Positions 58,812-64,000 of a stretch of DNA of 64,000 nt are shown in pieces. Position 1 is the stretch's first letter. Each line of letters opens with the position of its first letter. The notes beneath the pieces are model-generated. The model made no database searches. It saw nothing but the letters and a program-made list of their open reading frames with translations, and had not been told where the DNA came from. Origin of the DNA: an uncultured Clostridia bacterium (GTDB taxonomy: Bacteria; Bacillota; Clostridia; TANB77; CAG-508); assembly GCA_934149165.1 (NCBI GenBank), contig CAKPDY010000006.1, forward strand, positions 5,095 through 69,094. Reading direction: 5' to 3'. Both the position numbers and the translations under genes were made by a program.

Positions 58812-59695
58812 CTATAAATCAATCCATTCATCTATATATTTTTTAGAAATATTTAAACTTCCTGAACCAACTGCTATATCATTATTTGGTTTCTTTTCTC
58901 CGTGAAAATCGCTTCCTCCACTTATATATAAATTATTCTTTCTAGCATAATTAATAAGAATGTTAATTCTATCATCAAACTCAGCAGAAGGGTGAAAACA
59001 TTCAATTCCATCTAACATAATTTCTTTTCTTAATTCATCAATAAATTCAATAGTATCTTCAAATTTATACTCAAATGGATGTGCTAAAAAAACAAGTCCA
59101 CCTGCTTCATGTATTTTATTTGCAACATCTTTATATATAGGCTTTGGAAATTTATCCTCACCCATATAAAAAATACTATTAGGGTTATCTAATCCTTCTC
59201 TTCTAAAATCATTAAATGAATTTAGAAACTCTTTCATTATATTCATATTTTCTTGATGTTTTATAAGTTCAAAGTACATGTATACAACAAAAAAATCTGT
59301 TACAGGTATGTCTTTTTTTATATTATTTATATCATAAATTAGTCCATTTTTATCACATATTTCTAGAATTTTCTTTTTTGATTTTTCAAATTTTTCCTTT
59401 AATATTTCATATGAATAGAATTTATTGGACCACTCTTCTATAACCTCTAAATTTTTTATATTATATGCTAAAAACTCTATCCCTTTTCCATTATCAAGAG
59501 TTGCATTCATTTCTGCACCTTTAATTATTTTACCTGTAAAAATACCTTTATTTAATGATTTATCTTTATACTGTTTACATGTATTATGATCTGTTATTGA
59601 TATATATTCTAATTTTTTTCTTCACATCTTGTTAACACTTCTTCCACGGTTTTTGTCCCATCTGAATAAGTTGTATGTATATGCATATCTACCAT
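58812..59695 (-). pseudogene. PHP-domain phosphoesterase interrupted by a frameshift in an A7 tract (59613-59619)
   Basis: GGGAGG RBS and ATG at 59695: MVDMHIHTTYSDGTKTVEEVLTRCEEKN* (PHP HxH motif). Adding one A gives ..EEKKLEYISITDHNTCKQYKDKSLNKGIFTGKIIKGAEMNATLDNGKGIEFLAY.., in frame with the 232-aa ORF. The span is 884 nt (3n+2). Confidence 0.75.
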
Positions 59696-59757: not shown

Positions 59758-60219
59758 TTATAATTCTTTTATGTTTTCTATATACTTTTTTATTATTTCC
59801 TTAACTTCATTAGTTATCTTTGGATTATCAACTATTTCTTCAGCTGTTTGCCATAAATATGCATCATGTTCTGTTAAAATAATATTATCTGTCTGTTCAA
59901 CTTTAATAACAAAATTATATTGTCTTGCGTTCTTTCCACTTCCTGATTTATAATCAAAACTATCTACATAACATAGTATTTCTTTCATATCACAGTTTGT
60001 TTCTTCTTTTACTTCTCTTGCCAAGGCTGTTATTATATCTTCGCCTGCTTCCATATTTCCGCTTGGTAATTCATCAATTCCACCCATAAAGTCCTCTGAC
60101 TTTCTAGTCATTATTAAAATTTTTTCATCTTCATTAATAATAATTGCCCCAACAACGTTCTTTTCAATTCCCTCTTTTTTTCCTTTTTCCAATAAATAAT
60201 TATAATTATCCATATACAA
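59758..60219 (-). CDS. NUDIX hydrolase
   Basis: Canonical Nudix box PSGNMEAGEDIITALAREVKEETN. Confidence 0.85.
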   Translation of the reverse strand: MYMDNYNYLLEKGKKEGIEKNVVGAIIINEDEKILIMTRKSEDFMGGIDELPSGNMEAGEDIITALAREVKEETNCDMKEILCYVDSFDYKSGSGKNARQYNFVIKVEQTDNIILTEHDAYLWQTAEEIVDNPKITNEVKEIIKKYIENIKEL

Positions 60220-60300: not shown

Positions 60301-60528
60301 TTATTTGTTGCCCAGATTATATAATAATTTAAAAATATTTTCAACATTTAGTTGAAAAGCTATTATCTTCCCATTTATTTTCATAACTTTTGATGAAGGA
60401 AATTTTATTTCATTTTTTGAAATTACATCTTTTATACTCTCGTAAATACATTTATGATGATTAATCTCATTTTCAACTATTAATTTATTAATACTAATTC
60501 CATCTTTATAAGATAATTGATGATTTCC
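60301..60528 (-). pseudogene. Start-less 75-codon open frame, possible 3' remnant of a lost gene
   Basis: The minus frame reads GNHQLSYKDGISINKLIVENEINHHKCIYESIKDVISKNEIKFPSSKVMKINGKIIAFQLNVENIFKLLYNLGNK*. It opens directly after a stop with no start codon or RBS, inside a 476-bp otherwise non-coding gap. Confidence 0.3.
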
Positions 60529-60540
60529 TTATAGTTAACA

Positions 60541-60575
60541 AAAAAAATAGATAATCTTTCGACTATCTATTTATG
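60541..60575 (-). terminator. Rho-independent terminator of the TIR/Macro operon
   Basis: Minus strand: aatagatag-tcgaaagat-tatctatt followed by ttttttt. Confidence 0.65.
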
Positions 60576-60695
60576 GCTCCGTTTCAGCTGAGGTTTACAA
60601 ATTTTTATAAATAGTAAATTTGTGTTACAGCTCTTTTAACTTGGGTTTAGCTTAACATAATTTTTTATAATTTGCAAGTACCCTTTTAATATTTT

Positions 60696-61511
60696 CTAAA
60701 AACTTTCACCAATCCTGTTTAGTGAAAAGTCCTCTTTTTTCATGCATACAATATGCAGTTTATATGGATTTTTTAGTTTATGTTGGCATAATTTATATGA
60801 GTATATTATCATATCAAGTAATTCTTGCTGTGTTGGTGAAGCCTCTCCCATACGTGTAACTCCAGAACCTAATATTGGTATGCATACATCATTTTGTCCG
60901 TAATACTTATCAATTTCTTCCCATAATACAGCCAAACAATCAAGATATTCTTCACGAGTTAACCTACCTAAACCATCCTTATCTAATTTTGCAAACGCTA
61001 ATAATAAATAATCATTTCTTGGAATTAACTTACCCGATGTGTAACATTCTTTTCCTTGAAACTTTGATTTTGACTTTCTAGGAACTAATTGCGCTCCGTC
61101 TATTAATGCTTTCATATCTTCTATTGGATATTTCTTAAGATACTGCCCACAAATTGAATCTGGGTTTATTTCATAAGTTTTGCTTCCTACAGCTGTTGTA
61201 AAACACTCATCAAATGGTATTACCTTTTTACAATTATCCATTTCAAATATATTTCCATATTCGATTTTAATACAATAATTGTGCCCTTTAATGTATTCCT
61301 TCTTTCTATACTTTAAATATATTGCATATACAATAACAGACAATACAAATATCACAATATAAATTAAAATATGAATTAATACTATATTTACTTCATCTGG
61401 ACAATTTTTTAATACTTTACAATTTTTTAAAATATCATCTGAAACAAATGTAAATAATGCTGAAATAATTGCAAAAGCCCATGTACTAGTCTTTTTTAGG
61501 AATTCAATCAT
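60696..61511 (-). CDS. thsA: Two-TM + Macro-like domain protein (type II Thoeris ThsA-like effector)
   Basis: Two N-terminal hydrophobic helices (WAFAIISALFTFV; IVLIHILIYIVIFVLSVIVYAIYL). The C-terminal ~190 aa have Macro-like motifs IKIEYGNIF..KKVIPFDECFTT and VCIPILGSGVTRMG (phosphate-binding loop). The start overlaps the stop of the TIR gene by 8 nt. Confidence 0.6.
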   Translation of the reverse strand: MIEFLKKTSTWAFAIISALFTFVSDDILKNCKVLKNCPDEVNIVLIHILIYIVIFVLSVIVYAIYLKYRKKEYIKGHNYCIKIEYGNIFEMDNCKKVIPFDECFTTAVGSKTYEINPDSICGQYLKKYPIEDMKALIDGAQLVPRKSKSKFQGKECYTSGKLIPRNDYLLLAFAKLDKDGLGRLTREEYLDCLAVLWEEIDKYYGQNDVCIPILGSGVTRMGEASPTQQELLDMIIYSYKLCQHKLKNPYKLHIVCMKKEDFSLNRIGESF

Positions 61512-62115
61512 CTAACAACACCTCTTTTACATAGCTATAATTACCAACTTTCTGACCTAATGAATTAGTAATCCAAAATGGTTGCGCACTGTTTTCATAT
61601 TCCTTCATATATGATGGCAACCAATTAGACTCTTTACGTGTTGAATTATATAATATTATTATATTCTTTCCACGTCTTTTGGCTTGCTCAAACTCATGCC
61701 TCAAATAAGAATAATTATTTATATTTCCAACATCTTCGTTTTCTCTTGCAGGATACACTGTTTGAACCTTGCAATTTTTAGTTCCATTTGTATTTTGTTT
61801 ATATGGAGTACAAACACAATACCATGCATCTATACTTGCTCTCTGACAACCACTTCCTGCTGCACGAGAAGCTGTTTTATCACCTACAATAAAAATAACA
61901 GCAGATGAAGCATTTATTTGTTTATTAAATTCTTTTTTTAAATCACATATGCGACAATCTTGGTCATTTGAAACACTACCCGAAACCACTTTAGACATAT
62001 CAATAAAATCTATTTTGTGGATATTGTCAGTTCCCCACCTATTTAATATTTCTACCACATCGCGGTCTCCTGAATTTTCTGAGTAGTCCGCACTAATATA
62101 TACCTGCTTACTCAT
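61504..62115 (-). CDS. thsB: TIR-like domain protein (ThsB/DUF1863-like) with a Cys-rich insertion
   Basis: VYISADYSENSGDRDVVEILNRW.. aligns by eye with B. cereus ThsB VFFSFHYQD..RVNVVRNHW. SSAVIFIVGDKT and LRHEFEQAKRRGKNIIILY correspond to SVTVVLIGSQT and WVRYEIMKSIERGNKIIGIH, which contain the catalytic Glu. Confidence 0.65.
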   Translation of the reverse strand: MSKQVYISADYSENSGDRDVVEILNRWGTDNIHKIDFIDMSKVVSGSVSNDQDCRICDLKKEFNKQINASSAVIFIVGDKTASRAAGSGCQRASIDAWYCVCTPYKQNTNGTKNCKVQTVYPARENEDVGNINNYSYLRHEFEQAKRRGKNIIILYNSTRKESNWLPSYMKEYENSAQPFWITNSLGQKVGNYSYVKEVLLDD

Positions 62116-62293
62116 AATGCAACCTCCCTTAGCATTTTATTTTTTCTCATTATACCCCCAAAAATACGATTTGTCAGCAATTTTGTATAAAATACTCCTT
62201 AAAAAAAAACTTAAAAATCAAACAGACAATATATGTACAAACCTGCCCCTCCATGATATAATAAACTAAAACATCAACTTCAAGGAGGCAACT

Positions 62294-63037
62294 ATGTACT
62301 TTATATTTCTAGATGAATCTGGACAACCAGGAGGATTTGATACCGAAAAAAATACTTTAACAAAAAATTCAAGTAAATACTTCACACTAGGTGGATTTAT
62401 GATTAACGCAGACGACATACTAATAATTGAAAATGCTATGCGTGATATAAAAATAAAATATGGACTCAACCAATTTCATGAATTTAAGTGGCACACTTCT
62501 TATTCTAAACTTGGACTTACTTTTGAACAATACACAAACATGCGACAAGAAATTCTAAAGCTTATAAGTAAGCATAAAAACTCCGTAATTGGAATTGTAA
62601 TGGATAAAGAAAAATGTTACAAAGAAAAGGATTATATAAAGAATCATAATGATTTATACGCGGTAGGACTCCACTTACTAATGGAAAGATATTGTATGGA
62701 AATAACCAAGAGACATGGAAGGAAGACTACTATACCTGCAATGATTTTAGCTGATAGCCGAAAAACTGACAACAATAATAAGTTAGATAAAGATTTGCAA
62801 ATCGCATATTTAAGAGCCAAAAACATGGGTACACACTATGTCAAATTTCCAAACTTTTGTGAAAGCATTGTATTTGTTGACTCTGACTACTATTCAGGAA
62901 TTCAATTAGCTGACTTTTGTGCTGGAGTAATACATAGAAAATTTGAAACAGGCAATTCAGAACTTTTTGACATTATTAAACCTGCCATTCGTAAACACCG
63001 CAAAAATATAGATGGAGCTGGAATAAAATTATATTAA
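62294..63037 (+). CDS. DUF3800-family protein
   Basis: N-terminus MYFIFLDESGQPG (the DUF3800 hallmark hhhDESG) and a conserved late DS....GIQLADF motif. AAGGAGG RBS and a TG-extended TATAAT upstream. Confidence 0.7.
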   Translation: MYFIFLDESGQPGGFDTEKNTLTKNSSKYFTLGGFMINADDILIIENAMRDIKIKYGLNQFHEFKWHTSYSKLGLTFEQYTNMRQEILKLISKHKNSVIGIVMDKEKCYKEKDYIKNHNDLYAVGLHLLMERYCMEITKRHGRKTTIPAMILADSRKTDNNNKLDKDLQIAYLRAKNMGTHYVKFPNFCESIVFVDSDYYSGIQLADFCAGVIHRKFETGNSELFDIIKPAIRKHRKNIDGAGIKLY

Positions 63038-63043
63038 TAAATA

Positions 63044-63113
63044 AAAAAAGTGGACGATGGAATTAGTTGCCTAATTCAGCACACCTCAAGTCGGTGCTAC
63101 ATCGTCCGTTTTT
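63044..63113 (+). terminator. Branched (Y-shaped) GC-rich terminator-like structure
   Basis: P1 ggacgatg/catcgtcc encloses two hairpins (gaattag-ttgc-ctaattc and agcac-11 nt-gtgct). It is followed by gttttt and preceded by an A-run. Confidence 0.5.
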
Positions 63114-63244
63114 GTGTTCTGTATTATAATTATACAGTTTTTGTTCACATTTGTCAACAAATGTTTAAAATATTATATGCAATAAGTGTAAATTTATTCG
63201 TTTTTTGTTTTAATATCACTTCATCTTATAATCCATACCATTTA

Positions 63245-63688
63245 TTACTTTTTTAATATTTTTCTAAAGAAATTAACCAATTTTCTGTACCATTTTTCTT
63301 CTTTTACTTCAACCAATGCAACTTCTTCTTTAGTTATCTCTATGTTAGAGTTTTTAAATATATTATCAGGATTATATTTTTTTCTTAATTCTTCTTGATA
63401 TTTATTTTCATTATTAGCATAGACCTGTTTTAGTCTTTCTTTTTCTTTTTCATCTTTACACCAATATTGTAGATTTAATAATGCAATTAAAGCTAAAGTT
63501 TCTTTCTTTAGATTTTGCTCTTCAATTGAAATATTGGGATTAATTTCTTTATGATAATTCACATCTTTTTCTTTTTTGAATAATTCTCTTAATTTGGCTG
63601 GAATTTCATCTCTTGTTTTTTCATCTAATAATTCTAAAAATTCATCAATTTCTGAATATATTTGTTTTGTTTGAATATCGGTTTCCAT
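63245..63688 (-). CDS. hypothetical protein, paralogue of 40700-41143
   Basis: Collinear similarity to the 151-aa ORF (IP.K motif, INP, LxYW / IKYL, Y....IFKN, VAL, W.K..N.F.K). It lies downstream of a larger partial ORF. Confidence 0.5.
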   Translation of the reverse strand: METDIQTKQIYSEIDEFLELLDEKTRDEIPAKLRELFKKEKDVNYHKEINPNISIEEQNLKKETLALIALLNLQYWCKDEKEKERLKQVYANNENKYQEELRKKYNPDNIFKNSNIEITKEEVALVEVKEEKWYRKLVNFFRKILKK

Positions 63689-63731
63689 ATCTAAAATCCT
63701 CTCTTTTGTATACTATATTTTTATTTAATGA

Positions 63732-64000
63732 TTATCTCGAAATGGCATCATGTTCTTCGACTTTTGTCTGTTGCTGTACGTTTTGGTATGCATCTCTAAT
63801 GTTATAGTATTCCGTATTAATTTCTCCTGTTCTTGTTACTGTTTCAGTAGCTTGTACTGCACTTCTTAATATATCTGTATTTTGTTTTTCTCTTGATTCC
63901 ATTCGTTCTTGTGAAATATGCTGTATTCTCTTCAGCTCATCTTTTGGAAATGGTGTATCACTTACATCAAACCAACTATCCCTCAAAAATATGCTTCTCT
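63732..64000 (-). CDS. C-terminal part of a larger protein (open at window end)
   Basis: The frame stays open upstream of the TTG at 63986 (..RSIFLRDSWFDV..) to the window edge. No domain recognised. Confidence 0.4.
   Translation of the reverse strand, partial: RSIFLRDSWFDVSDTPFPKDELKRIQHISQERMESREKQNTDILRSAVQATETVTRTGEINTEYYNIRDAYQNVQQQTKVEEHDAISR

Follow-up and report, generated by a model that had tools for sequence, protein, structure and literature searches.

What do two overlapping genes in the chromosome of an uncultured human-gut Clostridia species encode, and which signal would connect their products? The genes lie on contig CAKPDY010000006.1 of an uncultured Clostridia bacterium (GCA_934149165.1), of which we analyzed a stretch of 64,000 nt, here called the window; all positions are in window numbering. 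An earlier note, made from the sequence alone, had described the pair as type II Thoeris-like, with a ThsB-type TIR protein and a ThsA with transmembrane (TM) helices and a Macro domain. Profile, sequence, structure, and gene-neighborhood evidence agree with that description, and we interpret thsBA as a functional type II Thoeris antiphage operon with a probability of about 0.88.

Both genes are open reading frames (ORFs) on the minus strand with ATG starts: thsB (61504..62115) encodes 203 aa and thsA (60696..61511) encodes 271 aa. As the earlier note had it, they overlap by 8 nt, so that ATGATTGA (61504..61511, minus strand) contains both the stop of thsB and the start of thsA. The overlap suggests that the two genes may be translationally coupled, and a junction overlap of 8 or 4 nt is common to at least eight related loci. 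Sequence reading places a strong Shine-Dalgarno site, AAGGGAGG (62123..62130, minus strand), 7 nt from the thsB ATG, and that of thsA, AAAGAGGTG (61519..61527, minus strand), inside the 3' end of thsB. A sigma-70-like promoter site, CTGACA-17 nt-TATAAT (62177..62149, minus strand; 11 of 12 consensus positions), is found ~34 nt 5' of the thsB ATG; it is a consensus match only, and such sites are no commoner in the region than in shuffled sequence. About 125 nt 3' of the thsA stop, folding predicts a terminator-like hairpin, AUAGAUAGUC-GAAA-GAUUAUCUAU followed by U8 (60540..60571, minus strand), with a 12-bp AU-rich stem; the 171-nt region that contains it has a folding z of -2.8. The hairpin escaped a consensus terminator scan: its stem is AU-rich, and the scan demands at least three G-C pairs. 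A terminator common to both genes, which the earlier note had also proposed, is plausible, and we predict that thsB and thsA form one co-transcribed operon.

Domains of ThsA and ThsB

The ThsA sequence matches Pfam ThsA_Macro (PF20016) at E=3.6e-45 across model positions 1-182 of 183; this is the sole Pfam match above threshold, and no SIR2 or SLOG domain was found by Pfam. The PADLOC model PDLC00411 matches over the full length of the protein (E=8.9e-125). Among Protein Data Bank (PDB) sequences, the matches are the solved ThsA Macro domains 9uuz, 8r66, 8v6q, and 8v6s, at E ~1e-22 with the single sequence and ~1e-30 (to 1e-31) with a 30-member profile. Of the solved structures, 8r66 is the Bacillus amyloliquefaciens ThsA (BaThsA) Macro domain with His-ADPR, a histidine conjugate of ADP-ribose (ADPR), 8v6q and 8v6r are from Escherichia coli (EcThsA), and 8v6s contains IAD. 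The AlphaFold2 model of ThsA, with a predicted local distance difference test score (pLDDT) of 78, has an alpha/beta/alpha domain preceded by two long helices at the N-terminus. Its top Foldseek matches are 8v6r, 8v6q, 8r66, and 8v6s (E ~1e-13, target-normalised TM-score 0.73-0.77), and generic MacroD and macroH2A domains trail them by about ten orders of magnitude (MacroD E ~1e-3). These results bear out the Macro-like C-terminal domain of the earlier note, which we place at residues ~81-256. The glycine-rich loop that had been singled out, G215-S-G-V-T-R220, is the conserved diphosphate loop that contacts the ligand, and its Arg is the counterpart of the one that contacts His-ADPR at the histidine carboxylate.

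The N-terminal region forms a hydrophobic helical hairpin (residues ~9-23 and ~41-66; AlphaFold2 helices 2-22 and 39-68, pLDDT 78-92), with Lys and Arg next to both cytoplasmic ends of the helices. Two TM helices had been claimed here. The claim holds well for helix 2, a strong TM segment whose Kyte-Doolittle mean over 19 residues rises to 3.2, and less well for helix 1, which has only 13-15 hydrophobic residues and falls below the Kyte-Doolittle threshold of 1.6 (window 19). ThsA is an N-terminal hydrophobic helical hairpin joined to a cytoplasmic ThsA-type Macro domain.

ThsB matches the PADLOC model PDLC00432 at E=2.6e-114, with residues 1-200 on model positions 1-200 of 202; this and the PADLOC match of ThsA are far stronger than chance would give. 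The match to Pfam ThsB_TIR (PF08937) is closer to its cutoff (22.5 bits; cutoff 21.2) and covers the N-terminal half of the protein only, because an insert splits the domain. Searches of PDB sequences with the single ThsB sequence and with a narrow 30-member profile both gave no TIR match; a profile that includes relatives at 27-35% identity reaches the E. coli protein EcThsB2 (8v6t, E=9e-6). Foldseek with the core of the AlphaFold2 model retrieves ThsB structures 9b7d and 6lhy, the SARM1 TIR domain, EcThsB2 8v6t, and nucleoside 2-deoxyribosyltransferases. In the profile alignment, Y8 and E89, the named active-site residues of EcThsB2 (Shi et al. PMC11204291), fall on Y6 and E141 of ThsB, which are invariant in 30 clade members, and W27 aligns with a Trp of the E. 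coli ATCC 25922 system that, when mutated, leaves no defence. ThsB is a TIR-fold protein with a Tyr-Glu active site (Y6/E141), as is typical of TIRs paired with TM-Macro effectors. The Glu in LRHEFEQ, which the earlier note had put forward as a catalytic candidate, is E141 and, by homology with EcThsB2 E89, the predicted catalytic Glu. PADLOC, Pfam, and AlphaFold2 assigned ThsB to TIR/ThsB and ThsA to Macro as the note had expected, and every peptide motif that it quoted is found in the translations.

The insert in ThsB comprises ~48 aa (residues ~85-133) and runs from strand beta-C (…GDKT) to the catalytic helix alpha-C (SYLRHE141). It carries C90, C100, C102, and C115, while the BB-loop region contains C54 and C57. 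All of 30 clade members have C54, C57, C90, C102, and C115, and nearly all have C100; in relatives of only 27-35% identity, a Cys near position 90 is still present, as are C57, C102, and C115. The earlier note had treated the Cys-rich insert as an oddity of this copy; the cysteines are instead conserved across the family. As a speculation, these residues probably make up a structural metal site spanning the BB loop and the insert, which would give the region around the TIR active site its shape or act as its gate; our literature search found no paper describing a metal site at these cysteines.

The domain assignments can also be set against a reading without signalling, in which the Macro protein would be an ADP-ribosyl hydrolase or antitoxin-like and the TIR a stand-alone NADase toxin, as in a DarTG-like or other module. 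Macro domains in general do include hydrolases, MacroD-type domains are on the Foldseek list (at the E-value given above only), and some bacterial TIR proteins, such as SpbK, are lone NADases. However, the non-catalytic ThsA Macro domains are the best structural matches by ten orders of magnitude, the Pfam match is to a ThsA-specific Macro family, and the N-terminal membrane hairpin suits an effector and not a soluble antitoxin. The MacroD catalytic Asp is reported to be missing in the homologous BaThsA domain (Sabonis et al. 10.1101/2024.01.03.573942). Moreover, the only PADLOC models that both proteins match, over their full length, are Thoeris models, and the partner is a TIR, not DarT. We consider a toxin or hydrolase module extremely unlikely.

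Family membership and gene linkage

Which Thoeris proteins does the pair belong with? ThsB is 72% identical, over 99% of its length, to KEH95235.1 from Clostridium novyi A GD211209 (P0036 in our protein set), which is listed in ThsB sub-family 7 in Table S2 of Shi et al. 2024 (PMC11204291). Sub-family 7 was described there as small, Clostridia-centred, and TM-Macro-only, within the active-site-tyrosine class; seven of its members have been modelled with AlphaFold, e.g., KEH95235.1 and C. perfringens AMN36764.1, all with a TM-Macro ThsA. On sequence comparison, we assign the window ThsB, with its TM-Macro partner, to this sub-family; the length of 203 aa, partner type, and Clostridia-centred distribution are the same, and we see no substantive difference.

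The clade is large and uniform. A large protein collection contains 1,826 ThsB homologues, the best 120 of which have 69-76% identity and lengths of 201-203 aa, and in clusters at 50% identity the whole ThsB clade is represented by essentially two full-length sequences and by fragments. ThsB is the more conserved partner, with a mean column identity within the clade of 81% vs. 69% for ThsA. ThsA homologues at 56-68% identity are found in C. perfringens, Turicibacter, and Salmonella enterica. The three S. enterica proteins (P0160, P0161, and P0217) are 59-61% identical to the window ThsA, which indicates transfer between phyla. A plasmid collection holds one copy (C. beijerinckii, 67.5% identity) and a phage collection one remote match (28% identity); the clade is not typically plasmid- or phage-borne.

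The two genes stay together across species. Of 13 other-species genomes that encode a ThsA of the clade, 12 keep the thsB-thsA order, with a 201-205-aa ThsB directly upstream of thsA on the same strand and usually an 8- or 4-nt overlap. Among the 13 other-species loci, none of the other neighbors in the window, namely, the NUDIX, DUF3800, PHP-like, and 147-aa ORFs, is conserved beside thsBA. Since no other neighbor is conserved, the functional unit comprises two genes.

General annotation does not recover this unit: no NCBIfam model matches ThsA or ThsB, and RefSeq labels a homologous ThsB as "hypothetical protein" and its partner as "macro domain-containing protein."

Two loci with related proteins have a different organization. 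In a Lachnospiraceae metagenome-assembled genome (L016, 112-4331), a ThsA of the clade (51% identical) is preceded by a protein of 1,102 aa, not a 203-aa ThsB, and followed on the 3' side by a HetE-N domain protein. Residues 116-195 of the 1,102-aa protein have a weak Nuc_deoxyrib_tr/TIR-like match (PF05014, E=4.7e-4), and the locus may be a large-sensor variant of Thoeris. Locus L029 (1821-3403) encodes, in reverse gene order, a 184-aa ThsB (27% identical, four cysteines) and a 341-aa ThsA_Macro protein with an N-terminus that fails to align to the TM hairpin.

Signal, Macro pocket, and known Thoeris systems

How the pair would work can be proposed from the B. amyloliquefaciens Y2 and E. coli systems (Sabonis et al. 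10.1101/2024.01.03.573942; Shi et al. PMC11204291; 10.64898/2025.12.03.692087), from which we take the mechanism. Upon phage infection, ThsB would convert NAD+ into an ADP-ribose conjugate by base exchange, most likely His-ADPR, and the conjugate would bind in the Macro pocket of ThsA. Ligand-bound Macro dimers would then assemble into higher-order oligomers and cluster their transmembrane helices, which may lead to membrane damage or growth arrest before phage replication is completed.

The type II system of B. amyloliquefaciens (velezensis) Y2 (Doron 2018; Sabonis et al. 10.1101/2024.01.03.573942) has the same two-gene architecture of TIR and TM-Macro protein. BaThsA (8r66) shares the Macro fold with the window ThsA (Foldseek E=5.8e-13), at only ~28% identity, and BaThsB has the same Tyr-Glu active site; however, the window ThsB is of sub-family 7 and not sub-family 9-like, and it has the Cys-bearing insert. 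The signal of the Y2 system is His-ADPR. In the E. coli TM-Macro Thoeris (Shi et al. 2024, PMC11204291; 8v6q, 8v6r, 8v6t; Englert et al. 2026, ATCC 25922), EcThsA is the best structural match to the window ThsA (E=3.3e-13) and has a similar two-helix N-terminal hydrophobic domain. EcThsB2 has in common with the window ThsB the Tyr-Glu pair and the Trp aligned with W27, but it is shorter (169 aa) and has neither the beta-C/alpha-C insert nor the cysteines. The E. coli system also has two ThsB proteins (EcThsB1 and EcThsB2), in contrast to the single ThsB here.

More distant systems resemble the pair in outline. Type I Thoeris likewise passes an NAD+-derived signal from a TIR sensor-synthase to a separate effector, but its ThsA is a SIR2-SLOG protein and its signal is 3'cADPR, and the components and signals of types I and II are not interchangeable. 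The two-TM effectors of CBASS offer a working likeness only, in that nucleotides induce oligomerisation of a small two-helix TM effector with proposed membrane disruption (an analogy drawn by Shi et al. PMC11204291); there is no relation to Thoeris in sensor domain, signal chemistry, or synthase (CD-NTase vs. TIR).

Does the Macro pocket of ThsA support the same signal? The published His-ADPR contacts of BaThsA are D100, N133, Q135, S194, R240, and Y277 (Sabonis et al. 10.1101/2024.01.03.573942), and the ADPR contacts of EcThsA are D83, L113, N114, S175, S217, G218, T220, H259, and K262 (Shi et al. PMC11204291). We mapped these positions by phmmer, profile, and MAFFT alignments, which were mutually consistent. 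Kept in the window ThsA are Q123 (Q135 in BaThsA), R220 (R240), and the S216-G217-x-T219 loop, so the G-S-G-x-T-R loop with the histidine-carboxylate Arg is common to both proteins. The position of D100, which contacts the adenine N6, is N87 in the window ThsA and D or N across the clade.

The other mapped contacts are among several observations that weigh against the reading of thsBA as a functional type II Thoeris operon. The position of BaThsA N133 and EcThsA N114 is occupied by a Cys (C121) that is invariant in the clade, that of S194/S175 by A174, with Ala in almost all clade members, and that of Y277/H259 by M257, where most clade members have Lys. Of the six published BaThsA contacts for His-ADPR, three are therefore changed, and His-ADPR as the signal is not assured; on the E. 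coli side, N114, S175, H259, and K262 are all replaced, the last by Asp or Glu in the clade. The altered pocket could mean a different ligand or merely a different binding geometry. In addition, the AlphaFold2 model of ThsB is of modest quality (pLDDT 64.6), its cysteine-bearing regions (43-57 and 85-135) have pLDDT <50 and are unmodelled, and the C-terminal tail of ThsB reads LLDD where the clade has LGY. Helix 1 of ThsA is short for a membrane span. In one E. coli type II system, growth is arrested and no markers of cell death are detected, so the outcome of the effector may not be membrane lysis. Finally, we found no experiment on sub-family 7 or its ThsA clade in the literature searched.

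The pocket changes raise a refinement that is nested within type II Thoeris and does not exclude it: sub-family 7 pairs may keep the architecture and use an ADPR conjugate other than His-ADPR. The side chains that hydrogen-bond the distal ribose (N133/N114 and S194/S175) and the one that stacks on the adenine (Y277/H259) are those replaced, and the N133 subsite varies between clades, because the distant ThsA of L029 has a His there (its Ser and Tyr are kept). The ThsB clade, too, differs from the characterised sub-family 9 by its insert and by an identity too low for a direct phmmer match, and bacterial TIRs produce many different signals (10.64898/2025.12.03.692087 among the literature). However, R220 and the G-S-G-x-T loop are invariant, the Tyr-Glu active site is common to BaThsB and EcThsB2, and His-ADPR has been proposed for this class (Shi et al. 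PMC11204291). The ribose and diphosphate contacts of BaThsA are mostly to backbone atoms (Sabonis et al. 10.1101/2024.01.03.573942), and therefore side-chain changes may be tolerated. We regard another conjugate as an unlikely but serious alternative, and we are similarly doubtful of its broader form, in which the conjugate would be chemically unlike His-ADPR and/or the TIR would be gated by a metal- or redox-sensitive cluster of four to six cysteines. Provided that thsBA is a functional type II Thoeris operon, His-ADPR is fairly likely to be its signal.

A strain-variable island and the state of the copy

Is this copy intact, and how did it come to lie here? The window is a chromosome segment with 26% GC that contains dnaE, obg, trpS, rplU/rpmA, and lexA; the host DnaE has 78-80% identity to proteins labelled "MAG: Clostridia bacterium." A contig of the same species without Thoeris (L021) aligns to the window up to position 60353 only, and its left flank matches positions 267-627 of contig L001, ending at the 3' end of a tRNA-Asn(GTT) gene. 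This comparison defines an island of ~9.4 kb (L001, 628-9997), of which 60354..64000 lies in the window. The island is bounded by the tRNA-Asn(GTT) 3' end on one side and a NUDIX gene on the other, with thsBA at its right end. Its cargo includes a 90-aa ORF, a 628-aa serine recombinase, TnpV, five unannotated ORFs, DUF3800, thsB, and thsA. At the same spot, L021 has ~3.1 kb of other cargo, including a PemK-like toxin gene, and serine recombinase/integrase genes also flank thsBA in other species (L009, L013, and L018). Altogether, thsBA is on a mobile, strain-variable island at a tRNA-Asn hotspot.

The earlier note had described the pair as flanked by other accessory genes. On one side this does not apply: the NUDIX hydrolase gene (59758-60219, minus strand; PADLOC candidate PDC-S07, E=8.5e-18) is a core host gene with no linkage to Thoeris in other genomes. 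We considered it as a third component, e.g., a signal-degrading enzyme, and rejected it, as it is absent beside thsBA in 13 of 13 other-species loci; as a Thoeris part it was also rejected, being a core gene that is present in same-species strains without the island. DUF3800, the PHP-like ORF, and the 147-aa ORF were ruled out as Thoeris partners in the same way, being not conserved beside thsBA elsewhere.

On the other side, the DUF3800 gene (62294-63037, plus strand; Pfam E=7.4e-23) is divergent from thsB. Its protein has weak matches to the PADLOC candidates PDC-M04A (3.5e-8) and PDC-S51 and to several PHROGs of unknown function, and the island may have a second defence gene in DUF3800. Beyond it, a 473-aa island protein (L001 5198-6619; 3' part of its gene at window ~63732-64000, minus strand) has weak leucine-rich-repeat and transglutaminase-core matches below Pfam thresholds. 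The neighboring island ORFs of 173, 128, 75, and 147 aa gave no family match.

The PHP gene (58812-59695, minus strand) has a frameshift at ~59607-59625. Its product is 294 aa in L021; here, a 1-nt poly-A deletion (A8 to A7) leaves a 232-aa ORF, for which no Pfam PHP match was found. The 232-aa form is present in all Thoeris-bearing contigs; the frameshift may mark a real pseudogene, reflect phase variation, or stem from an assembly error in the homopolymer.

The location of thsBA raises the question of whether the pair is no longer active and travels with the island as a passive remnant. In favor of this, ThsA departs from near-invariant columns at 8 of 101 (P24S, E25D, F28L, R47H, P112T, G166N, S194A, and K257M) and ThsB at 5 of 115 (G201L and four others), and the adjacent PHP gene is frameshifted in the Thoeris-bearing strain. 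However, both ORFs are intact and of full length with every invariant family residue kept, and the same number of departures occurs in other members (P0233, P0105, and P0113). The promoter-like site, the Shine-Dalgarno sites, and the terminator are likewise intact. An identical protein sequence is found on 11 contigs from independent gut metagenomes, and identical thsBA loci occur in independent human gut metagenomes, Hadza samples among them. We judge an inactive remnant to be very unlikely.

Similarly, the description of the copy as divergent does not stand. A divergent or decaying copy is ruled out by the ~70% identity of ThsB to most of its more than 1,800 homologues, the retained invariant residues, and the typical departure counts, and the PADLOC models are built on the same clade. 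The high AT content that had been offered as a sign of divergence is host-wide. As a sign of foreign origin it is ruled out as well, since at 32.8% (thsB) and 28.3% (thsA) GC both genes are slightly more GC-rich than the window (26.1%).

In all, thsBA is a further well-supported locus of type II Thoeris, this one from an uncultured Clostridia species of the human gut. It is an ordinary instance of a known antiviral system and holds nothing to surprise a specialist; general annotation misses it, whereas defence-specific tools would name the system correctly. The sub-family has already been catalogued, and no characterised member was found in the literature searched. With its abundance (more than 1,800 ThsB homologues), conserved cysteines, and altered Macro pocket, the clade would be a reasonable choice for studying how type II signals and receptors diversify.

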